The translations under genes and the position numbers were made by a program. From Escherichia phage AV127: a stretch of DNA of 53,045 nucleotides. The stretch lies in sequence record OR352957; one strand, given 5' to 3'. Positions 310-50,689 of the stretch are shown here, in pieces. The notes under the pieces were generated by a model. The model had not been told where the DNA came from. It saw nothing but the letters and a program-made list of their open reading frames with translations, and did not search any database. The first letter of the stretch is position 1. Each line of letters starts with the position of its first letter.

Positions 310-642
310 ATGATAAAGCCAAAACTGTTGCGGCATATTCGCAACGGTATTAAGCTACTCGCTGAAGGCAATGAATATGCCTGCAAGCAACGCGGTATTA
401 CAAAAGTCGGCCTGTTCAATAAAGAGTTACCAACTCGCTACTTTACCAAATCACCACTAACACTCGTACCTGCAGCGGAGTATTATAAAGACCCCGAAGC
501 AGCCCGGGCTAAAATCAAGGAAGGTCTTGACCGACTTGTAGAGGAAGGCTATTTGACAGTACGTCAACACACTGAATCATCTTATTACTACAAGCCAACT
601 TCTAAGGTAACCAGCAATGACAATGACGAGTCAGCCGAGTGA
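310..642 (+). CDS. Hypothetical protein (110 aa)
   Basis: ORF with GAGGAG SD 7 nt upstream of ATG; first gene of the plus-strand block. Confidence 0.5.
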   Translation: MIKPKLLRHIRNGIKLLAEGNEYACKQRGITKVGLFNKELPTRYFTKSPLTLVPAAEYYKDPEAARAKIKEGLDRLVEEGYLTVRQHTESSYYYKPTSKVTSNDNDESAE

Positions 643-3151
643 TATTCTCGGTCTGAAATACTTTAAGCCAGAAGGGATTCCCCAAGTCTTCAAAGATATG
701 AAGCGCTGGGCTATCTTTGAGCTAACGTACGAAGACGAGACTCTTGAAGTTCAATCCAAACCGAAGAAACCTGCAAGAGCGCCATCAGGCCGTTCCTTCA
801 GCACAACAGTGCCTGAAGAGTGGATGACTTTCGACGACGCCCTGACACGTTGTATTCGCAATCGTGAAATGAAGATTAAAGCTGTACAGGGGAATATCAC
901 CTTTGTGCCGGCTTTGGTTGTTCCTCGCCAGTGGTACTTTGTCGACCTGGACAACCATGAAGATAACCCAGACATTGAAGCTACCCACAAAGCGATAATT
1001 GAAGGGACTCGTGGTGCTTATGCCGAGACGTCAATCTCTGGCAAAGGGCAACACATTGCAATCCCTTTACCCTGGACTGCGGCAACATCTAAAGAGAAAG
1101 ACGAACAGCTGGACATCAAAATCCAGAAGGCTGAGATGTTCCTGGTAATGACGGGTAACGTGTTGAGTGAGTTCAATGCTAATCCTGTTTCAGCCCGTGA
1201 ATGGCATGCAGCAATTGAGAAGTTCTTTCTTGAATCAAGCGCACCTGACATTGATGTTGAGTTTGAGCAAGACGAAGACCGTGGCGAAGAGTATGACAAA
1301 GAGCTGTACGAACAGCTAGCCGACAATACTCGCTGGGCTTTAGAACACTATCTGAACGAGCACGCACCCGACGGTGTTGGTGTGAGTAATGACGGTTCTG
1401 AACGTTTAAGCCGTATCTTAAAAGACTTGCTTCGTGTAACCCGTAACTATGAAGTTACACAACGCATCTTCATGGCCAGCAAAGCTGCAGCATACGAAGG
1501 TCGTCGTGCAAGCCGACATAACTTGTCTGTTGACAAGTACCATCAGTGGTTCAGTCGTGTTGGTAAGACTGTGCTGAAAGAGATGCAACGTGATGGCTTA
1601 TTCGTCAAGACCAAGTTTGCTCTTGACATCAACAAAGAGTTAACCAAGAATTCTGGTGTGTCACTGGCTGAGAACGTTGAGTTCAAAGTCAATGACGATA
1701 TTCTGCCATCTGACGTATTTGTCAGGACGGCCCCGTCCGGGTTTAAACGGCTTATTGCTGAGATACAGGATAACATATCTCCGGCTAACAGGGTTAACGA
1801 CTATGCAATTGGCACAGCTCTTAACATCCTGAGCAACTGCGCTGGTCGCAAGTATGTTTGTCCAGTAGGCGGTCATGCTAACTTCCTGGTAACCAACATA
1901 ATTCTTGTGGGTGGTTCATCAATCGGTAAATCGTTGTATACCGAAATGTTCCCACAAATCCAGGCAAGTTTACCTGATACATCACCTATCAGCCTTAATC
2001 GTATTCCAAGGGAGCAGACTTTTGCAACCAGGACGTTTGCTGAACTGATGTCAAACCCGTCATACCATTCAGTCCAGTTGTTCTATCCTGAGTTTGGTCT
2101 GGCTTTAGGTTCAGGCTTACGCATGAATCCTAACAACCCGGACAACTTTCAGAAAGCTCTGATGGACGCTTCAACCAAGCGTAAGGTTGGTGGTATACTG
2201 ACAGGTATCAAACGTGCTAATGCTGACAATGATGTTAAGACAGTAAGCGAACCGTGCTACTCTATCCTGGGCGACTCAACTCAAGAGCTTATTCTTGACA
2301 ACACCCGCAAACAAGACTTCTCAAGTGGCTTTTTGCCCCGCTTCCTGTTCATCCCGAACTATGAGCGAGCGGAGTTTGCCAAACCTGAGAAAGTAGGACG
2401 TCGCCAGCAGATTCGCCGTACATCCTTTTCAAAGGAGCTGATTGAGAAGCTGGAAGCAATCGCTTATGTGAATGCTATCCCGCCTAACGGTAAATTAAGG
2501 CACGACCCGATTCCTATTTACGACGAATCGGATGATGATGACTTCCTGTACGAATACCAGTGCAACATTAATGACATGCGCCAGTATTACAGGGACAACG
2601 AAGTAGCATCCGCCTTTGTGGGCCGAATGGGTGAGTATGTATTCAACATAGCAGCACTGATTGGCTTACTCGACAACTGGGATGCTCCTGTAATGACCAG
2701 GGACAACATCGAATGGGCTTACAAATACGTTCTTCGTTGTATAACCGCCTGGGTCAATAACACAAGCAGGATAGTAGCACCACCAACTACCAACGCCGAA
2801 GTAGTTGATGGCTTCCTCAAAGTCTACAGGGACATTTTGGCCCTTTACACCAAAAGAGGATGGTCTGGCATAGTCAAGCATTATCCTGAGGGTGTTGTGA
2901 GAAGTATCCGAGAAGAACACCTCCAGATGAATGGTTTAAGCATATATGCTATTCGTCAGTCTTTGAGCTGGTTTAAATCAAATTACGGTTTTAATATCAC
3001 AGCTAATAATAAAGTCATTGACGGAATGCTACAGGACATGATTGACCAGGACTATTTAGCGGTTCAAGTATATAAGCCCACAAGAGGCCGAACTGCTAAC
3101 ATTTACTGCCTGACAGAGCGAGGATATGACACTGCTAAGAAACTAAAATAA
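617..3151 (+). CDS. Primase-polymerase (AEP-type) fused to SF3/D5-like helicase
   Basis: 844 aa; FVDLDN acidic motif in N-terminal half; Walker A GGSSIGKS mid-protein; start uncertain (overlaps previous ORF). Confidence 0.6.
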   Translation: MTMTSQPSDILGLKYFKPEGIPQVFKDMKRWAIFELTYEDETLEVQSKPKKPARAPSGRSFSTTVPEEWMTFDDALTRCIRNREMKIKAVQGNITFVPALVVPRQWYFVDLDNHEDNPDIEATHKAIIEGTRGAYAETSISGKGQHIAIPLPWTAATSKEKDEQLDIKIQKAEMFLVMTGNVLSEFNANPVSAREWHAAIEKFFLESSAPDIDVEFEQDEDRGEEYDKELYEQLADNTRWALEHYLNEHAPDGVGVSNDGSERLSRILKDLLRVTRNYEVTQRIFMASKAAAYEGRRASRHNLSVDKYHQWFSRVGKTVLKEMQRDGLFVKTKFALDINKELTKNSGVSLAENVEFKVNDDILPSDVFVRTAPSGFKRLIAEIQDNISPANRVNDYAIGTALNILSNCAGRKYVCPVGGHANFLVTNIILVGGSSIGKSLYTEMFPQIQASLPDTSPISLNRIPREQTFATRTFAELMSNPSYHSVQLFYPEFGLALGSGLRMNPNNPDNFQKALMDASTKRKVGGILTGIKRANADNDVKTVSEPCYSILGDSTQELILDNTRKQDFSSGFLPRFLFIPNYERAEFAKPEKVGRRQQIRRTSFSKELIEKLEAIAYVNAIPPNGKLRHDPIPIYDESDDDDFLYEYQCNINDMRQYYRDNEVASAFVGRMGEYVFNIAALIGLLDNWDAPVMTRDNIEWAYKYVLRCITAWVNNTSRIVAPPTTNAEVVDGFLKVYRDILALYTKRGWSGIVKHYPEGVVRSIREEHLQMNGLSIYAIRQSLSWFKSNYGFNITANNKVIDGMLQDMIDQDYLAVQVYKPTRGRTANIYCLTERGYDTAKKLK

Positions 3152-25487: not shown

Positions 25488-25910
25488 ATGATCATCGATT
25501 CTTCTGAATGCGTGTTGAGCCTGAATGGTGTTCAGCTGTCCGACTGGGCAGACGGTGCCGATGTCATTGACGTGCAATGGGTGGACCCAGCTTCCACCTA
25601 TCTTGCAGGTGCAGATGGCAATGGCATTCAGATTATGAACCCGTCCAAAGCNNCTATCAAGGTTAAGCAAAATGGTCCGGATGCCAAATGGCTTAACGAC
25701 CAGTACAACCTGCAGCGTAACAACATTCGTGGATTTGTCCCGTTTGTGCTGCAAGCCAAAGACCTGCTAAACCAGGATTTGGCATGGGGCAAAAAAGGTT
25801 ACTTTACCGATGGTTCCCCGTGGACTCGCGGTAACGGCCATAACCCGACTACCTTCGCTATTGTGTTCCACCAAGGTGGTATGCAGTTGACTGAAGGCTT
25901 TGACCAGTAA
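25488..25910 (+). CDS. Putative tail tube protein (contains 2-nt N gap at 25651-25652)
   Basis: 140 aa after sheath-like gene. Confidence 0.5.
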   Translation: MIIDSSECVLSLNGVQLSDWADGADVIDVQWVDPASTYLAGADGNGIQIMNPSKXXIKVKQNGPDAKWLNDQYNLQRNNIRGFVPFVLQAKDLLNQDLAWGKKGYFTDGSPWTRGNGHNPTTFAIVFHQGGMQLTEGFDQ

Positions 25911-29095: not shown

Positions 29096-29511
29096 TGATA
29101 TTTACCACAACNNNNNNNNNNNNNNNNNNNNNNNNNNNNNNNNNNNNNNNNNNNNNNNNNNNNNNNNNNNNTATTTACGACTTGGAACCTACCTCCGAAG
29201 GTAAGCAATCAATATCAATTTCTACCGCTGGATATACGTATAACATTGAGTTGTACTATAACACGGTAGGTCAGCTCTGGCAGGCTACAGTGACTGACAT
29301 ATCAAGTAATGCTGTACTTTGTTCCAGTTATGCTTTACAATATGGGCGTATTGCTTTTGGTAACTGGGACACGCGTATAGCGTTGCTGGTAAGTGACAAA
29401 TCCTCCAGCCGCATCGGTCCTATGACTACAGATGACATGGGAGGACGTTGCAGTGTCTACATCGTCGACAAAACAGCCTACCCGTCAGTTTGGCCGCGCG
29501 TTAAAGCTTGA
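29095..29511 (+). CDS. Hypothetical tail protein interrupted by 60-nt N gap
   Basis: ORF track; N-run 29112-29171 makes frame and length unreliable. Confidence 0.3.
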   Translation: MIFTTXXXXXXXXXXXXXXXXXXXXXIYDLEPTSEGKQSISISTAGYTYNIELYYNTVGQLWQATVTDISSNAVLCSSYALQYGRIAFGNWDTRIALLVSDKSSSRIGPMTTDDMGGRCSVYIVDKTAYPSVWPRVKA

Positions 29512-36835: not shown

Positions 36836-37037
36836 TAAACCTGAAGTTGTTTATGTTGACAGGATAGTCAAGGTTTATCCGCCTGGCGCATACATGGTTA
36901 AATGCCATAAACCTGAATTAACCGGTAATACCTGGAAAGCAATAGGTCAGTTAGCTATTGAACGCGGAACAGCTCTTGATGACTGTGCAGACAAGATGGA
37001 CAGCATAATTGACTGGAGTAACAAAGGGGCCGAGTGA
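36762..37037 (+). CDS. o-spanin (Rz1-like lipoprotein) overlapping the i-spanin 3' end
   Basis: Signal peptide ending in lipobox LTSC; starts inside Rz in +1 frame and extends past it. Confidence 0.55.
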   Translation: MTKLQKMIRALIPLLLLPFLTSCADKPEVVYVDRIVKVYPPGAYMVKCHKPELTGNTWKAIGQLAIERGTALDDCADKMDSIIDWSNKGAE

Positions 37038-37051
37038 AGGCCCCTTTATTT
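37026..37051 (+). terminator. Rho-independent terminator ending the plus-strand late block, at the convergence point with the minus block
   Basis: GGGGCC-GAGTGAA-GGCCCC then TTTATTT. Confidence 0.7.
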
Positions 37052-37566: not shown

Positions 37567-39534
37567 TTAGTGTGCCTCTGCCCAGTTACTTTCTATCTTA
37601 GCATCAGTAAGAACAGGCACACGAAGCGGTAGCACAGTTTCCATGACCCGTACGAAATCATAGAATCCATCTTCTGCTTGCTTACCAGTTGGTAGAGAGA
37701 AGTTAAGCTCATCGTGTACCGTCAGGCGAGGTACGCCAATCACGTCGAAGTAACCGTCTTCATACCCTTTCAGCATTGCAGACTTCATCTGGTCTGCTGA
37801 CGACCCTTGCAGCACCCGGTTGATTGCCTTGTGGGTGTCTGCCAGCTTAATGTTCGGGCCGTATTCCTGACGAGCTTCTTCAAATGGCAAAGGCATCTTG
37901 CCGAATCCACCACGCTTTGGAACCCATTTGTTGAACCACGTCTTACGGCCCATAAAGGTTTCTACATACCCCTGGCTATAGCATAAATCTTCGTAATGCT
38001 TCATGGTAGCGCCGATAAATGGCGCACCCTGATGATACGCCTTCAGAACAGGTTCTGCTTCTTCAGGCGTCATTGCTAACTTACGGGCAAGAGCATTAAG
38101 CATCATGCCATACAACAAACCAAAGTTAATGGTCTTAGCCGGTTTACGCTCTATAACGTGACCTGAGGCTTCCTTGATAATATCGACCATAACATTGTGG
38201 TAATCTGCTTCCGGGTTAGCCGCGAAAATTGCTCGTAACTCATCAGCGCCCGGGCCGACTGCAAAATGCGCCATGAATCGATATTCAATTTGGGCGTAGT
38301 CTGCTGATCCCCATCTGTGTCCGACATCCGGTACGAAACAAGCACGAAGGAGTGGTCCCAGTATTTTGTGTCTAGACGGTATATTCTGCAGATTAGGGTC
38401 AGATGAGCTAAACCGACCACTAACGGTTCCACCGTCATCACCGCGCATTTGATGGAATTGACCGTGAAGGAAGCCATTTGTATTCATCCCCAATATATAG
38501 CCACGAATAAACGTGGACTGGATTTTTTCATAAGACTTAATCTCAGACACCAGTTCCGCAAACGGATGGTGCAAGCCTGCTAAGAAGTCCGCTGTAAACG
38601 ACGGATTACCCGCCGCTGTTTTGAAGTACTCCAGACCTAAATGGTCAAATGCAAGTGCTAAATCAGGACCAGAGTTAACGTTAATGTTAAAGCCAATCTG
38701 GTCTTTAATCTGCTGGTGCATTTTCCTTATTTCAGCGCTAAGCGTATCATCCGCCTCTTTGGCTTTGTCAAGGTCAACACGCACACCTGCAAAACGCATC
38801 TTAAGCATTAATGGAATGAGCTTGCACTCCATATAGAATACGTCTGTTAAACACCAGCGACTTAACAAAGGCCACTGGGCTTTGATAATGTGTATTGGTA
38901 AGTCGGCGTCAGATTCAGCATAGTAACCCACAAGACGAGGAGGCGTTTTGTAGATGTACTTTCTGGCTTCACCTGTTGGCTTACAGCCATAAGCATCTGA
39001 AATCCATTGGTACATCTCAGCTGAGTCTTTACCTTCGCCTACGTATTTTCGTCCAAGTCCTTCAAGTGCAACACGCGCGCCTGGGTCAAGTAATGCTTCC
39101 GCGAATTGTACATCCATGCACAATCCTTTGACTTCCACGCCTTCTGCTGCAAGCCAGCCCAAGTCATATGTGATGTTAGCACCGACTTTAACTTGGTTAG
39201 GTCGTGAGAGTTCGAGCCGAAGCCAACCAAGTACTTCCTCAGCTGGAAGGTTATCCTCTTCGCCGAGCTCGTGTCTGATTGGGTAGTAAGCCTTGAAGCC
39301 ATTGTCCGTAGCGATACTAACTCCAACGATATGACCTTCCCTCCTGGCCCAACCACTACCATTTGCATCCATCCCTGGGTCATATGTTTCACAGTCAAGA
39401 CCGATAATCTTCGCAGAAGACAAATCCGGGTAATGCGCGCGCGGCCGCCATCCAGTATCCCTGACGTATGGTATAGGACGGTTGATAGGTTTAACATTCT
39501 TTGCACCTTCAAAGCTATCGAATAAAAAGCTCAT
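37567..39534 (-). CDS. DNA polymerase, family A, with 3'-5' exonuclease domain
   Basis: Exo I motif LDCET; motif A DYAQIEYR; motif B RKPAKTINFGLLYG; motif C VHDE. Confidence 0.85.
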   Translation of the reverse strand: MSFLFDSFEGAKNVKPINRPIPYVRDTGWRPRAHYPDLSSAKIIGLDCETYDPGMDANGSGWARREGHIVGVSIATDNGFKAYYPIRHELGEEDNLPAEEVLGWLRLELSRPNQVKVGANITYDLGWLAAEGVEVKGLCMDVQFAEALLDPGARVALEGLGRKYVGEGKDSAEMYQWISDAYGCKPTGEARKYIYKTPPRLVGYYAESDADLPIHIIKAQWPLLSRWCLTDVFYMECKLIPLMLKMRFAGVRVDLDKAKEADDTLSAEIRKMHQQIKDQIGFNINVNSGPDLALAFDHLGLEYFKTAAGNPSFTADFLAGLHHPFAELVSEIKSYEKIQSTFIRGYILGMNTNGFLHGQFHQMRGDDGGTVSGRFSSSDPNLQNIPSRHKILGPLLRACFVPDVGHRWGSADYAQIEYRFMAHFAVGPGADELRAIFAANPEADYHNVMVDIIKEASGHVIERKPAKTINFGLLYGMMLNALARKLAMTPEEAEPVLKAYHQGAPFIGATMKHYEDLCYSQGYVETFMGRKTWFNKWVPKRGGFGKMPLPFEEARQEYGPNIKLADTHKAINRVLQGSSADQMKSAMLKGYEDGYFDVIGVPRLTVHDELNFSLPTGKQAEDGFYDFVRVMETVLPLRVPVLTDAKIESNWAEAH

Positions 39535-40529
39535 CAGTCCCCTCTCACATACGCAATTACAACTGTACGAGTTGAGTTTTCCATTTTGAGCGCCTGACTA
39601 CCAAGCCCTATTCTTTCCATGCCTTTAGCCAGTTTACTCATCTGACTAATAACACAGTTGAACGGTTTACTAAACTTAGTCGACTGGAACTTAATGTCGA
39701 CGGACATCTTAGGAATAATCTTGTCTGGTAAGTCTGCTTTTGCTGTTGACTCGCCAGTTATCTCCAGAATGGCTTGACCTTCGTCATACCCAGTAAGCTG
39801 GTCCATAACCTCCAGGAATTCAGGAGTGATGGCCTGCATATCCATTTCCATATTGAAGAACTTCGATACGTCTGGCCATTTGGCTGCGAGTACCGGAGCA
39901 TCCATCTGTACGCCATCCGCAAAGCCGAAGAACATCTGACCGCGGGCATATCCTACGCTTGTGGGTTCCATCTTCAGCTTAACCAAGGCCTCAAGCATTG
40001 GCTTGGCTATGGCGCATTCAAATTCAAAATCTACGTTCAACTTCTCGCGTATCATATACTTGCCGTTAGTGGCGTAAGCATAACCATCGCGCAAAAGTAA
40101 AGATGTTGCCCATACCTGCGGTGCTTCGTTAGGTACCCATTTGGCCAGGGCAGTTAGCACCGGGAGTAATTCGCCATGCGCTGAATACCAGTTGTTAACT
40201 GTAGCAAGCGGCGGTATTGGTTCATTAAGCGCTTGCATTCTTGTTTTAAGTACGCCTGCTGTGACTGTGAGGTTTCCAGCGGCTGTAATGTTAAAAGTAA
40301 TCTGTTCGGTTCTTGCCGCATTAACGGCCTTACGAAATGATTCAGCATCCACTTGCAGGTCTGGGAATCCTTTACATGGTGCTCGTAGTAATACGTTCTT
40401 GTAGTATGAATGGATTGTTTCGTTTGCAATCCATATTTTGCCCATAAGACCGCTATCAGTATACTTGATGGGACGAGCTTGTTGAACGGCAATCTGTATT
40501 TGTTTGGTGTCATAGTTAAACTTGCTCAT
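39534..40529 (-). CDS. Putative beta-sliding-clamp-like protein
   Basis: 331 aa; recalled resemblance to DnaN layout (N-terminal MSKF...QQ, mid-protein ATNGKYMI versus ATDGHRLA); weak. Confidence 0.35.
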   Translation of the reverse strand: MSKFNYDTKQIQIAVQQARPIKYTDSGLMGKIWIANETIHSYYKNVLLRAPCKGFPDLQVDAESFRKAVNAARTEQITFNITAAGNLTVTAGVLKTRMQALNEPIPPLATVNNWYSAHGELLPVLTALAKWVPNEAPQVWATSLLLRDGYAYATNGKYMIREKLNVDFEFECAIAKPMLEALVKLKMEPTSVGYARGQMFFGFADGVQMDAPVLAAKWPDVSKFFNMEMDMQAITPEFLEVMDQLTGYDEGQAILEITGESTAKADLPDKIIPKMSVDIKFQSTKFSKPFNCVISQMSKLAKGMERIGLGSQALKMENSTRTVVIAYVRGD

Positions 40530-40536
40530 AGTATAA

Positions 40537-40552
40537 CGGGGCCGAAGCCCCG
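40537..40552 (-). promoter_or_regulatory. Intercistronic RNA hairpin CGGGGC-UUCG-GCCCCG, 8 nt upstream of the 40529 start codon
   Basis: Read directly; UUCG tetraloop on the transcribed strand; no SD between hairpin and ATG. Confidence 0.55.
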
Positions 40553-40559
40553 CTCCATC

Positions 40560-41542
40560 TTATACGGCCATTTGGAGTTTGATGTTTGGCATTGGTTTGT
40601 ACTTCTCAACCATTGGCGCAACATCGGTAGGAGTGAAGTCAAATACTGACACGTCATAAATCGCGTTAATGTCAGGACGACCTTCAAAGTTAGTGTCCAG
40701 TGTAGTATCAGAATTGCTTACGATACGTTGCAGGAAAATCTTTGCCGCATCGATATGATTCTGATAGATGTGATAGTCACCCAACGTAACAGTCATATCA
40801 CCTACCCCAGTACCCAGCTCAGCAGCAATGGTAATCTGCAGCATTTGATGCAACAGAATATCGTGAGGCAGACCCAGAATAACATCCGCGCTACGCATGT
40901 GGAACATCAGCTCTAATTCATTACGGTTGTTAATGAACAGCTGAAAACCATGGTAACAAGGCGGAAGGGCCATGGCGTCCATCTCTTGTGGGTTCCACGC
41001 CGTAATGTACGCCCTGCGGTCAGTAGGCTTAACCTTCAGCGTTTCAATAACATCTTTAAGCTGGTTAGTAAGAACACCATTCTTATAGAAAGGCTTAATC
41101 CATTGCACGCCGTATACCGGACCTAAGTCACGGTTGTCTGGTGTACCCCAACGTTTGTTTGCATCCTGCAGGTTACCTTCCCACCAGTTGCAGCCAAAGC
41201 CTTTGAGCGTGTCGACGTTTGAAATGCCGTTGATAAAGCAGTAAAGCTCAGCAGCAACAGCTTTGATGTTAACAGGTTTAAACACCGGCACCATCAGTTT
41301 GTTGTCGTTGAAAGCCAGTTTAAACGCTGTACCAAAACAACGGCGGGTNNNNNNNNNNNNNNNNNNNNNNNNNNNNNNNNNNNNNNNNNNNNNNNNNNNN
41401 NNNNNNNNNNNNNNNNNNNNNNNNNNNNNNNNNNNNNNNNNNNNNNACCAACACCTGTACGGTCTACAACATCCTCACCTTTACGCAGGATAAAAGAAAT
41501 GATGTCGCTGTAAAGAGAATCGACAGTGCTGTATGTTTTCAT
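40560..41542 (-). CDS. Thymidylate-synthase-fold pyrimidine C5-modifying enzyme, predicted dCMP-directed; interrupted by 98-nt N gap
   Basis: DRTGVG, LGPVYGVQW, DRRAYITAWNPQEMDAMALPPCYHGFQ; Asp in GLPHDILL where ThyA has Asn (GLPFNIAS). Confidence 0.65.
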
Positions 41543-42546: not shown

Positions 42547-42575
42547 ATTATACCACATCACTCTCTAGTGGTAAA
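42547..42575 (-). promoter_or_regulatory. Early promoter TTTACC-N17-TATAAT with ACCAC...GTGGT inverted repeat overlapping spacer and -10
   Basis: Minus strand reads TTTACCACTAGAGAGTGATGTGGTATAAT. Confidence 0.5.
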
Positions 42576-43771: not shown

Positions 43772-43993
43772 CTAGAAAGGCACATCATAGTCAAAAAGTT
43801 TACATCCGGAAGACAGGACTGCCGGCGGTGGTGTTTTGCCTCCGGATAATAGACAACCTCCTGCCTGGAAACTACGGCAGTTCGCACAGCTCATATCCTG
43901 CAGGTATATAATAAGCTGCCGGCGGACGTGCCGTGGTAAAGCTTTAGCCTGGGTTGCTACCCGTTCAAATAGTTCTCTGTCATCGAGCGCCAT
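43772..43993 (-). CDS. Hypothetical small Cys-containing protein (73 aa)
   Basis: ORF track; CANC...GGC...GC cysteines; overlaps helicase 3' end. Confidence 0.3.
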   Translation of the reverse strand: MALDDRELFERVATQAKALPRHVRRQLIIYLQDMSCANCRSFQAGGCLLSGGKTPPPAVLSSGCKLFDYDVPF

Positions 43994-45650
43994 ATCCGTT
44001 CCCCCAATCGTAGTTCATGATTTGTGGGTAGGGACGTTTAATCCATACCTTAATACGCTTAGGAATGGCCAGCTCACCCTTACGGCGGATAAACTCGTCG
44101 CATGTTTCAGGTGGTTCGGTTCCTGCAGCATTACGCCACCAGGCATCTGCCATTTGTTTAGCATTACCATGGGCCTCAATATTTACCCAAGTTGTGTACA
44201 CTTCCAGGTTTGAATAATACACAACCTTTATACTGTCAGGCCGTCCTTGCTTCTGGAATAAGGAATAGTTTACCAGCGTAACGTCTTTGTCTACAACACG
44301 AAGCTGGCCATTAGTCATTACCTCTTCTTCTGACGAAGTGAATGCAATAGCCGGTCCGTTAACTGTAAATTCAAATTCATGTCCGCACATCGGATATACA
44401 CCATTCTCGTCTGGCGTACTTCCTTTAGCCGGATGCTTACACGTACGAGCAGCATAGCCACTTACCTGGTGACAGATAGGGCACTCTTTACCACCAGGCG
44501 TTTTCTCTGACCGTTTCTTTTTCTTCTTACCAAGACGTGGCGGAACAGCTGGGTCATCAATAGGACCAAGGTCAATGGTATTAGATGTAAAGTCCATAAC
44601 AAGACAGTCATGCTTGCCAGGCGCTGTACGTAGTCCTCGGCCGAGTATCTGCACCCACAAAGCAACAGACGTGGACGGGCGCAAGATGCCGAGCATATCA
44701 ATCTCAGGATAGTCAAATCCTGTCGTCAATACGTTTACGTTTACACATACCCGTGCTCGTCCGCTTGTAAACTCTTCCAGTGCGGCTTCACGTTCTTTCT
44801 TTGTAAGACCGCCATGTACAACAACAGTCTGCCAGCCTCGCAGATTAAATTCGTCTGCTATGTTGTGGGCGTGTTCAACACTTGTGGCGAATACAAGAAC
44901 GTGGTTCCTGTCTTTACCGTAGTGCATCATCTCACGAATAGCCGCGACTGTTATACTATGCTGGTTGGCTACCTTCTCAAGCTCTGACGGGATATAGTCA
45001 CCCATCCTTTCGCCAACATTACTGGTGTCAATCTTGGTTAACACTTTCTTGTTGACCAGGCGTGACAGGAAGCCTTCATTTACCAGTCTGGTAAATGCGT
45101 CAGGTGTTGTAAGGTCATAGCAGATGTCGGTAAATATACCGCAGTCAAGTAAATGACCCCCTGCCAGGCGATACGGAGTTGCTGTAAGTCCTGTTACTTT
45201 TACCTTAGGATTAAGCTCTTTGAAGTGAGCAATAACCTTACGGTATGTTGTTTCAGACTTCTCAGGAACAAGATGGGCTTCGTCAACGAATATAAGATTG
45301 AACTTACCTGCTTCTTCCAGGTTCTTAATGATTGACTGTACTGACGCTACAACGATACGACCTGAAAAGTCTTTGTGTCCTGCGCCTGAAGAGTAGATAG
45401 ATACTGGGGCTTGTGGCCAGTGACGTACAATCGCTTTGGCGTCTTGTTCTACCAGCTCCTTGACGTGTGTCAATATAAGAATGCGCTGACGGGGATAGCT
45501 GGTAAGAATATCCTTCATCAACATACCAAGCACAGGTGATTTACCTGAACCTGTCGGCATGACAATAAGTGGATTACCACTATAAGAATTGAAGTACGAC
45601 CACCAAGCTGTGACCGCTTCTTGTTGATACCAGCGAGCTTCAAAAGCCAT
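43980..45650 (-). CDS. SF2 DNA helicase (DEAH-type) with C-terminal Cys cluster
   Basis: Walker A MPTGSGKS; Walker B FVDEAHL; CPICHQ...C near C-terminus; GAGGAG SD. Confidence 0.7.
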   Translation of the reverse strand: MAFEARWYQQEAVTAWWSYFNSYSGNPLIVMPTGSGKSPVLGMLMKDILTSYPRQRILILTHVKELVEQDAKAIVRHWPQAPVSIYSSGAGHKDFSGRIVVASVQSIIKNLEEAGKFNLIFVDEAHLVPEKSETTYRKVIAHFKELNPKVKVTGLTATPYRLAGGHLLDCGIFTDICYDLTTPDAFTRLVNEGFLSRLVNKKVLTKIDTSNVGERMGDYIPSELEKVANQHSITVAAIREMMHYGKDRNHVLVFATSVEHAHNIADEFNLRGWQTVVVHGGLTKKEREAALEEFTSGRARVCVNVNVLTTGFDYPEIDMLGILRPSTSVALWVQILGRGLRTAPGKHDCLVMDFTSNTIDLGPIDDPAVPPRLGKKKKKRSEKTPGGKECPICHQVSGYAARTCKHPAKGSTPDENGVYPMCGHEFEFTVNGPAIAFTSSEEEVMTNGQLRVVDKDVTLVNYSLFQKQGRPDSIKVVYYSNLEVYTTWVNIEAHGNAKQMADAWWRNAAGTEPPETCDEFIRRKGELAIPKRIKVWIKRPYPQIMNYDWGNGYGAR

Positions 45651-45708: not shown

Positions 45709-46587
45709 TTATTTTAAGGAAAGTTTAACGGGCTTCTCATCCTGCGGGAAGACATCAGCAGGTCGATAATCATCACAAGCTGCTAATTGCTCTTCGAGTG
45801 TTTCGAGCTCTTTCTGGTGCTTGTTACAATACCACACTTTGCCCTGAAGCGGTTTACTATAGTGGCAGGTTCTGCAGTTCCTGTCGGGCATTGCTCCTTT
45901 GTGGCATAAGTGGTGGTACGTGCACATTCCTGGCTTGCACTCCCACCAAATAGGCGATTCAGAAATCTTCGGCATATCCAAACCAGATTCCGCATATACG
46001 ACAGCCTCTGCTTTGCTCAGTTGTATGTCGCTTTCCAGTAAGTCAATCTCGACCACTTCAAAATACATCTCATCGGTGTTCTTGTTAATTGCAATATACA
46101 CAGCTTGATTCAGCTTAAGCTTCCGCATGTATACCTGCATTTGAGCATAGTGCACCGGCTTACTGGCTTTAACAGACTTGAGCTTGATTAGCTCTTTAAA
46201 CGACTTATCACCATGCGTTTTGAATTCAGCAAGTGCCCAAACGCCTTTGTATTTGATTACACAGTCACAAGACCCAGAGAAGATGTCATTGAAGTCGTGT
46301 ATGCGCCACTGCTTACCTGTTTTAGGGTTGACGTCCAGCACTTCATCACATACGGAACGAAGCCACTTCACAATTCTGCTTTCTTCAAGGTTACCACGTT
46401 CAAACAGACGAAGTTGCTTAGCGGTAAACTTCTCCTTGAACGACCAATGCAGAACGTGCCAAAGATAGCGATAGCAGTTGTGTCCTATCTGCGATGCTCC
46501 AAGATGCCCGCGTCGTTCTTCTCTTTCGTGGGCTTCGACTATCTTGACATCAATACGTTTCTGCAGGTCGTCAAACGGACTGGGCAT
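45709..46587 (-). CDS. RecB-family (Cas4-like) PD-(D/E)XK nuclease with 4-Cys cluster
   Basis: Start ATG 46587 with GAGGAG SD; D...LAEFK motif; one N-terminal and three C-terminal Cys (CKPGMCTYHHLC). Confidence 0.45.
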   Translation of the reverse strand: MPSPFDDLQKRIDVKIVEAHEREERRGHLGASQIGHNCYRYLWHVLHWSFKEKFTAKQLRLFERGNLEESRIVKWLRSVCDEVLDVNPKTGKQWRIHDFNDIFSGSCDCVIKYKGVWALAEFKTHGDKSFKELIKLKSVKASKPVHYAQMQVYMRKLKLNQAVYIAINKNTDEMYFEVVEIDLLESDIQLSKAEAVVYAESGLDMPKISESPIWWECKPGMCTYHHLCHKGAMPDRNCRTCHYSKPLQGKVWYCNKHQKELETLEEQLAACDDYRPADVFPQDEKPVKLSLK

Positions 46588-47056
46588 CGTTAAACTCCTC
46601 AATGCTGAATTCATCGTATACAATATTATGTGCCCACAAATGAGCGACGGCATTTGCCATGCTATCCTTCCATTTGGATTGTGAAGCTGTATGTGCCAAT
46701 GCAACTACACGTACCAGGTTAAGGTTGGCTATCAGCATGTTAGCACAATGTTCGCACGGCGGGTAGGTTATGTAGATGGTAACCGGGCCTAACGAAGGAG
46801 TGTCTAGCTCTCTCCTTATATTAGCTAAGGTGTTTATCTCGCTATGAATAGTTAGAGCGTTCTTGAGGCTATTAGGCACTATTCTTATAGAGTCTAGCTG
46901 CGTAGGTAAGCCGTTATATCCAGTGGAAATAATACGCTTGTTCTGGTCTACAAGAACGCTACCGACCTGGCGTTTCGGGTCATTCGACCAGCTTGCAACT
47001 TCACAAGCTATGCGCATAAACCGCCTGTCCCACTTGTCCATCTTCTTCTTTTGCAT
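46571..47056 (-). CDS. dCMP deaminase (cytidine/deoxycytidylate deaminase family)
   Basis: Zinc-binding motifs HSE and PCEHC. Confidence 0.7.
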   Translation of the reverse strand: MQKKKMDKWDRRFMRIACEVASWSNDPKRQVGSVLVDQNKRIISTGYNGLPTQLDSIRIVPNSLKNALTIHSEINTLANIRRELDTPSLGPVTIYITYPPCEHCANMLIANLNLVRVVALAHTASQSKWKDSMANAVAHLWAHNIVYDEFSIEEFNDAQSV

Positions 47057-49783: not shown

Positions 49784-50689
49784 TTACAGCAGTTCTGCTT
49801 TAAGTGCAGCGATACCATCGAGCAACGCTTTGATGTCAGGGTTAGATGCTGCCAGGTCTGCAACAACTGACTGACGACGACGTTCCAGCTCTTTCTCAAC
49901 TTCCAGGTCGAGGCGTGCTGATGCTTCACGCAGTAAGTCTTCAACCTGCTGACGACGCTGGTACTTGTTAAAGTCAGGTACATCAACCAGCCATTTGAGA
50001 GTCGCAGTGTTATAGCCAGAAGTATTGGCTGCACTTACAGACACAACATCAACCAGCTTGGTACCGTTCAGCTCCGGATAGTTAACATTGCGAACGTCAA
50101 CAACCGCTTTGTCACCTACACTTACTTTGCCGATGTACTTGTAAGTGTACACACGACCATTCGGTTCAAACTTAACACCGACGAACTTCAGTTTATCGTC
50201 GGCAATAACTTCTTCTTCAACTTTGAAGTTGATTGCTGTGTTCTTGACAGGTGCAGCTGCTTTGAGCTTAGCAACCATGTACTGTTCGGAATGAGCAGGA
50301 CGGCACAGACGGAATACGTCTTCATTGTACGTCAGCCAGTTACCGGTTTCGTCCATGCATGCAATCTGATTAGTGCCATCCAGCGAACGAACGCCAGGGC
50401 GATTCTTCTCAACACGATACAGCTTACCTTTTTTCAGGTTAGCATAAGAACGGCGGGCGATACCCCAGTTGTGTTTTTCAGATTCATACTTAGCGAAACG
50501 GTCAACACTGAAGTTCTGCTTCAGACCGCGGTCGTCAATTACCCATAAGTTATCGTAAGCACCGCCGAAAGAACCCAGGTTGGCATACACTTTGCCCTGC
50601 GTCAGCAGGGAAGTGTTTCCCTCGTCAACACAGATAACAAAACCCAGAGCTTCGTGTGCTTTACCGCTGCGGTCAAATACTGTAGTCAT
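49784..50689 (-). CDS. Hypothetical protein (301 aa)
   Basis: ORF track; coiled-coil C-terminus. Confidence 0.45.
   Translation of the reverse strand: MTTVFDRSGKAHEALGFVICVDEGNTSLLTQGKVYANLGSFGGAYDNLWVIDDRGLKQNFSVDRFAKYESEKHNWGIARRSYANLKKGKLYRVEKNRPGVRSLDGTNQIACMDETGNWLTYNEDVFRLCRPAHSEQYMVAKLKAAAPVKNTAINFKVEEEVIADDKLKFVGVKFEPNGRVYTYKYIGKVSVGDKAVVDVRNVNYPELNGTKLVDVVSVSAANTSGYNTATLKWLVDVPDFNKYQRRQQVEDLLREASARLDLEVEKELERRRQSVVADLAASNPDIKALLDGIAALKAELL

Follow-up and report, generated by a model that had tools for sequence, protein, structure and literature searches.

The DNA analyzed here, 53,045 nt of Escherichia phage AV127 (sequence record OR352957; "the window" below is this whole stretch), carries a 331-amino-acid (331-aa) open reading frame (ORF) directly upstream of a family A DNA polymerase gene. 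We consider it probable, at roughly three chances in four, that this ORF encodes a phage-specific, highly diverged beta (DnaN-type) clamp that acts as the processivity subunit of the phage family A replicase. A first-pass annotation had placed a 331-aa ORF immediately upstream of the polymerase, and the ORF listing confirms this: the clamp gene starts with ATG and lies at 39534..40529 on the minus strand, and the polymerase ORF (37567..39534, 655 aa) is directly downstream on the same strand.

39534..40529, minus strand: clamp gene; predicted three-domain beta-clamp (DnaN-fold) protein of 331 aa, with approximate domains 1-110, 111-225 and 226-331
37567..39534, minus strand: 655-aa, Klenow-like DNA polymerase of family A that has a 3'-5' exonuclease domain but lacks a 5'-3' one

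Profile and structure comparisons point to a beta clamp

The clamp protein matched PHROG 947, "DNA polymerase processivity factor", over its full length (E 1.8e-45), with residues 1-328 aligned to profile positions 2-351 of 368. An alignment of 18 clamp homologues (A1) was the basis of both a family profile and an AlphaFold2 model. The profile matched the solved beta clamps 8xla and 4trt (E 7e-4 and 9e-4, respectively), and the clamp of one relative, L040, matched TIGR00663 (dnaN) with E 8.9e-6, its 24.9 bits being far below the cutoff of 137.65. The model, with a mean predicted local distance difference test score (pLDDT) of 90.3 and a predicted template modelling score (pTM) of 0.82, shows the clamp-domain pattern repeated three times. 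When it was compared with the PDB by Foldseek, the top 50 matches were all bacterial DnaN (E ~1e-18, TM 0.72-0.79), and BFVD gave phage proteins that carry a beta-clamp annotation, among them those of Seurat, Halfdan, Suba and rivia. The DnaN-like layout that the first-pass annotation had tentatively suggested thus finds support in PHROG 947, in the two solved clamps and in the predicted structure, and the comparison with DnaN by hidden Markov model (HMM) and structure prediction, which it had proposed as a check, favors a DnaN-like clamp.

Because the profile and structure methods agree, we assign the protein a three-domain protomer of the DnaN type: the modelled half-ring is of the beta-clamp class by predicted structure and stands outside the curated DnaN families by sequence. 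Its identity to DnaN is only ~10-14%, and its length is 331 aa versus ~366 aa. No profile searched placed the protein in another family. It fits neither PCNA and T4 gp45, which are characterized by a two-domain protomer acting as a trimer, nor herpesvirus UL42 and UL44, in which a two-domain clamp fold binds DNA by a strongly basic face and does not close into a ring. The clamp family has many members: with a cutoff of E <= 1e-3, 2716 cluster representatives (50% identity) were recovered in an exhaustive HMMER search, and with few exceptions they are 310-330 aa long. A longer protein, P0062 (497 aa; clamp region 179-495), has an N-terminal extension of ~178 residues before the clamp domains; it could be a fusion informative on partners or a gene-calling artefact.

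About 45 phages of Salmonella and Escherichia, all from the genus Rosemountvirus (type member BP63), share 96-98% identity with the window. Many BP63-like GenBank records name the clamp gene "DNA polymerase beta subunit" or "DNA polymerase processivity factor", and a 100%-identical protein is present in NCBI and UniRef as "DNA polymerase beta subunit". The identical database entries, together with homologues down to ~20% identity, mean that the ORF is no chance reading frame. The clamp identity itself is therefore already known through public annotation, and our result is in this respect mostly confirmatory.

Conserved clamp segments and the peptide-binding cleft

The invariant or near-invariant positions of the clamp in A1 are W140, A141, L145, L146, A151, A153, W218 and P219, with W218 and P219 being invariant. 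They fall into two segments:

40050..40118, minus strand: codons for residues 138-160 (QVWATSLLLRDGYAYATNGKYMI), the best-conserved segment of the clamp family; aligns with E. coli beta R152-L177
39855..39878, minus strand: codons for residues 218-225 (WPDVSKFF); aligns with E. coli beta F241-P242-D243...R246-V247

In the HMM alignment the conserved segment falls on the sequence VATDGHRLA of 8xla and 4trt. The HMM and hhalign alignments pair W140/A141, A153-M159 and W218/P219 with E. coli Y154/L155, A171-L177 and F241/P242; the hhalign comparison with the single E. coli DnaN, which was used for residue mapping only and not as evidence of homology, equates T154 with T172, G156 with G174, K157 with H175, Y158 with R176 and M159 with L177. 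Subsite I of E. coli beta includes R152, L155, T172, G174, H175, R176, L177, P242, R246 and V247 (PMC11139829). By remote alignment, the equivalent phage residues would be Q138, A141, T154, G156, K157, Y158, M159, P219, K223 and F224, of which T154, G156 and P219 are identical to the E. coli residues and M159, K223 and F224 are conservative substitutions. The mapping of the best-conserved clamp segments to subsite I of the cleft between domains II and III is only suggestive, since the alignment is remote.

The clamp gene is coupled to a replicative polymerase

The polymerase matched the Pfam families DNA_pol_A (1.5e-63) and DNA_pol_A_exo1, and aligned with the Klenow fragment over residues 66-655 against 42-605 (1.7e-50). 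Relative to Klenow it has a net 26 extra residues over the aligned span, too few to accommodate a large thumb insertion. Its best NCBIfam match was the aminoadenine-incorporating DpoZ_1 (6.6e-91; 305 bits, well below the 500-bit cutoff). As no PurZ-like gene was found among the window proteins scanned, DpoZ_1 is probably no more than the closest PolA subfamily that bears a name.

The stop codon of the clamp gene (TGA, 39536-39534) and the start codon of the polymerase gene (ATG, 39534-39532) share one base, forming TGATG. This overlap and the Shine-Dalgarno-like run inside the clamp gene are a layout typical of translational coupling.

39532..39546, minus strand: translational-coupling junction, with the Shine-Dalgarno-like run GAGAGGGG at 39546-39539 within the 3' end of the clamp gene, followed by TGATG

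The pairing of the two genes extends to the relatives: of about 140 related viral loci, all that are complete have a clamp homologue immediately ahead of a polymerase gene. A search with the clamp profile gave 67 viral contigs, 62 with a complete locus and five truncated; in all 62 complete loci the clamp gene is followed on the same strand by a polymerase of at least 550 aa. The reverse search, made with a PolA alignment, gave 522 relatives, and among the best 80 loci, which were examined, 79 had a clamp homologue upstream of PolA, the exception having only 28 nt of upstream sequence. Overlapping genes were found at 45 of 112 distinct clamp-polymerase junctions (31 at -4, 12 at -1 and two at -11), and the genes at 15 more junctions lie within 10 nt of each other.

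The polymerases of the clamp-profile set are of two kinds. About 26 are family A relatives of the window enzyme, and 36 belong to PHROG 1252 and have no Pfam match. The latter are family B polymerases, as seen from matches to Sulfolobus PolB1 (1s5j) and E. coli Pol II over motifs B and C (E 8e-6 and 7.5e-5) and from NCBIfam:

L040, 11106-13142: family B partner polymerase
L015, 10876-13047: family B partner polymerase
L012, 5625-7727: family B partner polymerase
33 other loci among L012-L070: family B partner polymerases

When the family A and family B partner sets were compared by hhalign, homology was confined to the first ~120 residues (probability 90.6, E 1.3e-6), which comprise the N-terminal motif, the linker and the beginning of the exonuclease domain. 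These alignments suggest that the catalytic core has been exchanged behind a fixed clamp-tether module.

A candidate clamp-binding motif at the polymerase N-terminus

The first-pass annotation had proposed to look for a clamp-binding motif in the C-terminus of the polymerase. None is present there: the C-terminal region (...DAKIESNWAEAH; ...VLTDAKIESNWAEAH; end NWAEAH) is variable across relatives and has no LF-type motif. A candidate, MSFLFDSF, was found instead at the extreme N-terminus, in an extension without counterpart in the Klenow fragment (aligned from residue 66) or in DpoZ_1 (from residue 44).

39400..39534, minus strand: N-terminal extension of the polymerase, residues 1 to ~45 (MSFLFDSFEGAKNVKPINRPIPYVRDTGWRPRAHYPDLSSAKIIG), before the ExoI motif DCET
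39511..39534, minus strand: candidate clamp-binding motif MSFLFDSF, the window-lineage variant of a hydrophobic-F-[W/D]-acidic motif

Of 118 distinct partner polymerases (81 of family A, 35 of family B), 116-118 begin with this hydrophobic-F-[W/D] motif. Its majority form is M-x-x-D-x-phi-G-[L/M/F]-F-W-[E/D/Q/N]-D, for example MRADALGLFWED, and its minority form is M-[F/L]-F-D-[D/E]; the window phage has MSFLFDSF. The core tripeptides are LFW (55), MFW (28), FFW (10), FFD (10) and LFD (8), and in 101 of the 118 polymerases the next residue is E, D, Q or N. The W and D variants follow clades. The form G[LMFI]FW is almost confined to the partners: among 2405 ORFs, it occurred 55 times within the first 70 residues, 53 times in partner polymerases and once more in a truncated polymerase. 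The motif is followed by a Pro/Lys-rich linker and then by a conserved PPxPxxW...YLPxL element ahead of the ExoI motif.

The bacterial clamp-binding consensus is Q-phi-x-[L/M]-[F/L], and LF alone binds subsite I; the motif of delta, AMSLF, has no Gln, that of Hda is N-terminal, and acidic flanks are typical (PMC11139829). Compared with this consensus, MSFLFDSF has the L/M-F core and the acidic flank and no Gln. The resemblance to the LF core of bacterial clamp-binding motifs makes a role as an N-terminal tether plausible. In the literature searched, neither this motif nor its occurrence in both family A and family B polymerases is described; the 2011 survey by Kazlauskas and Venclovas (PMC3201878) looked for motifs at C-termini only. 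A second possible clamp client, the Cas4-like exonuclease with the N-terminus MPSPFDDL, was rejected as a chance resemblance, as its relatives differ at this place (MGLLDK, MSITAE and others).

Polymerases of phages without a clamp gene served as controls. Distant PolA phages align to the window polymerase only from residue ~29-46 onward. M6, CN2, HTVC023P, VP5 and K21lambda1 lack any clamp homologue up to 6 kb from the polymerase, and the whole genomes of M6 and HTVC023P contain none (HMM search with filters off, E <= 1). The F-[W/D]-acidic motif is absent from all five polymerases. Three of these phages, representing two lineages (Pseudomonas M6, Bordetella CN2 and Pelagibacter HTVC023P), have canonical motifs at the same N-terminal place:

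M6, L153, 5947-7941: MSYLQPPLF
CN2, L154, 5938-7920: MQFPLF
HTVC023P, L152, 4988-6862: LQLTLTF

Given such Q-x-x-L-F or QLxLxF starts, these three phages may ride the host beta clamp. Paracoccus phage R3, whose polymerase is 43% identical to that of the window, was the positive control; its polymerase carries the motif, as LFFDD, and a processivity factor is annotated in the phage. In this small sample, the sequence pattern is what a clamp tether predicts.

The N-terminal motif might instead dock the helicase or primase or help the exonuclease domain to fold, with the clamp contacting the polymerase elsewhere. The missing Gln, the Trp or Asp foreign to canonical clamp-binding motifs and the presence of helicase and primase genes in all sampled loci speak for this explanation, and assignment of the peptide to the clamp is based on co-occurrence and resemblance. 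However, the motif was seen only where a clamp gene is present, it is kept when a family B core takes the place of family A, and the clamp-less relatives have canonical motifs at the same spot (QPPLF in M6, QFPLF in CN2, QLTLTF in HTVC023P). On balance, we regard a function other than clamp binding as somewhat unlikely.

Evidence to the contrary, clamp loading and alternative roles

Several results weigh against a beta clamp serving the phage replicase. Scans of the clamp protein against Pfam (E <= 1) and NCBIfam (including TIGR00663; E <= 0.1) gave no match, nor did a single-sequence phmmer search against the PDB. The hhalign comparison of the family with the single E. coli DnaN is colinear (3-293 versus 2-322) but non-significant (E 0.067). 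The literature searched holds no binding, oligomer or processivity work on this clamp family. The candidate motif MSFLFDSF lacks the Gln of canonical motifs, and the window phage has the minority LFD variant. An AAA+ clamp loader is not annotated in BP63 and was not found by Pfam and PHROG scans of the unassigned early proteins. Finally, the isoelectric point (pI) of the window clamp, 7.6 for the protein and 9.6 for domain I, is higher than that of typical ring clamps.

The search for a loader gave a single related signal, a match of the Sak4-like ATPase to PHROG 168 restricted to the Walker-A region (E 4.8e-4); a 301-aa hypothetical protein (49784..50689) matched only families of unknown function.

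The missing loader and the pI are the main arguments for the principal competing explanation, a non-ring clamp-fold subunit that binds DNA by a basic face, as UL42 does as a monomer or UL44 as a C-shaped dimer. An open form would need no loader, and loader-less viral clamp homologues tend to have a raised pI, for which direct DNA binding has been proposed (Kazlauskas and Venclovas, PMC3201878). The raised pI, however, holds weakly for the window clamp and not for the family, whose median pI is 5.7 and is alike for the members linked to family A and to family B polymerases. Such an acidic family pI is compatible with a ring. We therefore favor a ring, the family median resembling that of ring clamps, with loading either spontaneous or done by the DnaX complex of the host, and consider a non-ring subunit clearly unlikely.

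In the mechanism that we propose for the beta clamp, two protomers would join head to tail and form a ring that encircles duplex DNA. The N-terminal LF-type peptide of the polymerase, MSFLFDSF, would insert into the cleft between domains II and III, by analogy with QLxLF in cellular clamps, and would so tether the polymerase to the primer-template DNA. Opening and loading of the ring would be done by the host DnaX complex or would proceed without a loader, since the phage encodes no AAA+ clamp loader.

The protein could also act mainly on the host, as a DnaN mimic that titrates clamp-binding proteins, poisons host beta through heterodimers or recruits host Pol I and ligase. The cleft-forming segments do resemble those of host beta, and phage proteins directed against the host clamp exist (Gp168 with the beta clamp, PDB 7evp). 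Moreover, the polymerase has no 5'-3' exonuclease domain and no ligase is annotated in BP63, so that beta-binding host maturation enzymes would be needed. However, the strict and ancient coupling of clamp and polymerase and the partner-specific motif point to the phage polymerase as the primary client; at ~10-14% identity to DnaN, a heterodimer with host beta is unlikely; and a tool-belt role would add to processivity without replacing it. A primary action on the host thus appears very improbable.

Comparison with known systems

The first-pass annotation had called the pairing of a family A polymerase with its own clamp unusual. It is less so than supposed: besides being annotated in the BP63-like records, it has been described for Ma-LMM01 and RSL1, which encode PolA, PolIII-beta and PolIII-gamma and for which the DnaN homologue was proposed as the PolA processivity factor (PMC3201878). 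These two genomes differ from the window phage in exceeding 150 kb and in having a gamma-like loader subunit, whereas the window phage has 53 kb and no loader; its size class was described as typically without clamps (PMC3201878).

Unlike bacterial DnaN (E. coli 2pol and 3d1f), the predicted clamp is phage-encoded, has no cognate loader gene and would serve a family A polymerase (family B in relatives) rather than Pol III alpha; unlike that of canonical DnaN clients, the candidate motif of the phage polymerase is without Gln and stands at the N-terminus. Precedents for both oddities are Hda, with its motif in a disordered N-terminus, and delta, whose AMSLF without Gln occupies the same cleft (PMC11139829), although neither is a polymerase.

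Genes annotated as "DNA polymerase III beta subunit" in Seurat/9g-like phages, Loki, MMDA13 and R3 belong to the same family, PHROG 947, and have the same position directly upstream of the replicative polymerase, this function being known from annotation only. Acinetobacter phage Loki has a family B polymerase, gp22, and a Pol III beta, gp23 (PMC5313236), and in MMDA13 DNA pol III beta is located beside DpdA (PMC7472734). Many relatives of these types have a family B partner and DpdA as the upstream neighbor, unlike the window phage.

In T4/RB69 (gp45-gp43) and the herpesviruses (UL42/UL44-UL30/UL54), a virus-encoded clamp fold is likewise docked by a terminal peptide of the polymerase. The T7 gp5 enzyme, too, belongs to family A and depends on an accessory protein for processivity; it differs in that host thioredoxin binds to a thumb insertion, whereas the window phage encodes a clamp-fold protein and its polymerase has only the 26 net extra residues.

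Genomic context

From its promoter, the operon contains, in this order, a gp57-like gene, a gene for a MazG-like pyrophosphohydrolase, thyA (thymidylate synthase), the clamp gene and the PolA gene.

42547..42575, minus strand: sigma-70-like promoter (TTTACC-17-TATAAT with TG) at the head of the operon; BP63 has an annotated promoter at the corresponding site
40537..40556, minus strand: GGAG and then, 7 nt ahead of the ATG of the clamp gene, an 8-bp G+C hairpin whose loop is UUCG; the element separates thyA from the clamp gene
37023..37047, no strand assigned: bidirectional intrinsic terminator that closes off the replication operon from the lysis genes; BP63 has annotated terminators at the corresponding site

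The stem of the hairpin is CGGGGC/GCCCCG, and the Shine-Dalgarno sequence would be ~23 nt from the start codon without the hairpin. In L006, L007 and L008 the pairing of the stem upstream of the clamp gene is kept with different sequences, and a T-run follows it there. This element might serve as a hairpin-bridged ribosome-binding site, as an attenuator or as both.

A DpdA homologue (~305 aa; PHROG 887, queuine tRNA-ribosyltransferase; no Pfam match) lies directly upstream of the clamp gene in five of five scanned family B loci:

L040, 9014-9940: DpdA homologue
L015, 8872-9792: DpdA homologue
L012, 3745-4662: DpdA homologue
L063, 8860-9819: DpdA homologue
L052, 8813-9736: DpdA homologue

Other family B loci have an ORF of similar size (~305 aa) in this position, where the window phage has thyA. 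This neighbor links the family B clamp-polymerase pair to 7-deazaguanine DNA-modification clusters.

The remainder of the replisome (617-3151, plus strand; 43980-45650, minus strand) comprises an 844-aa primase (PHROG 3022, with a DUF3987 region), a superfamily 2 (SF2) DEAD/ResIII helicase, a single-stranded DNA-binding protein (SSB), the Sak4-like ATPase and the Cas4-like exonuclease. The ORF of the Cas4-domain exonuclease (45709-46704, minus strand) has a TTG start and 331 aa; an ATG at 46587 after GAGGAG gives 292 aa, as annotated in BP63. Neither a ligase nor a 5'-3' exonuclease was found in the window phage replisome, and host factors are therefore needed for the maturation of Okazaki fragments.

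Three runs of N in the record look like assembly or scaffold gaps when compared with BP63: 98 N at 41349-41446 for ~0-3 nt, 60 N at 29112-29171 for 36 nt, and two N at 25652-25653 where BP63 has 11 nt. Thymidylate synthase (40560..41542) is split and put out of frame by the 98-N run, probably through an artefact and not a real disruption.

Implications

The observations on the tether and on modularity are new leads of moderate interest. A broader picture, to which we give about even odds, would be that of one widespread clamp family of ~320 aa (at least 2700 clusters at 50% identity) combined with a portable N-terminal tether module (the peptide, the Pro/Lys linker and PPxPxxW...YLPxL) that is kept while family A and family B cores are swapped. 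The clamp-less sisters (YuA-like phages, HTVC023P) would presumably ride the host clamp. In the loader-less 40-70-kb phages the clamp would be loaded by host DnaX or by itself, making an orthogonal clamp-polymerase pair that stays apart from the clamp traffic of the host.

With its conserved LF-type peptide, the polymerase N-terminus offers a concrete and cheap hypothesis on how a Klenow-like polymerase could be coupled to a beta-type ring. If it is true, polymerase cores would be exchanged in a modular way behind a fixed clamp tether, the clamp and polymerase would form an orthogonal pair that could possibly be used as a tool, and the motif would provide a marker for annotating phage replicases.

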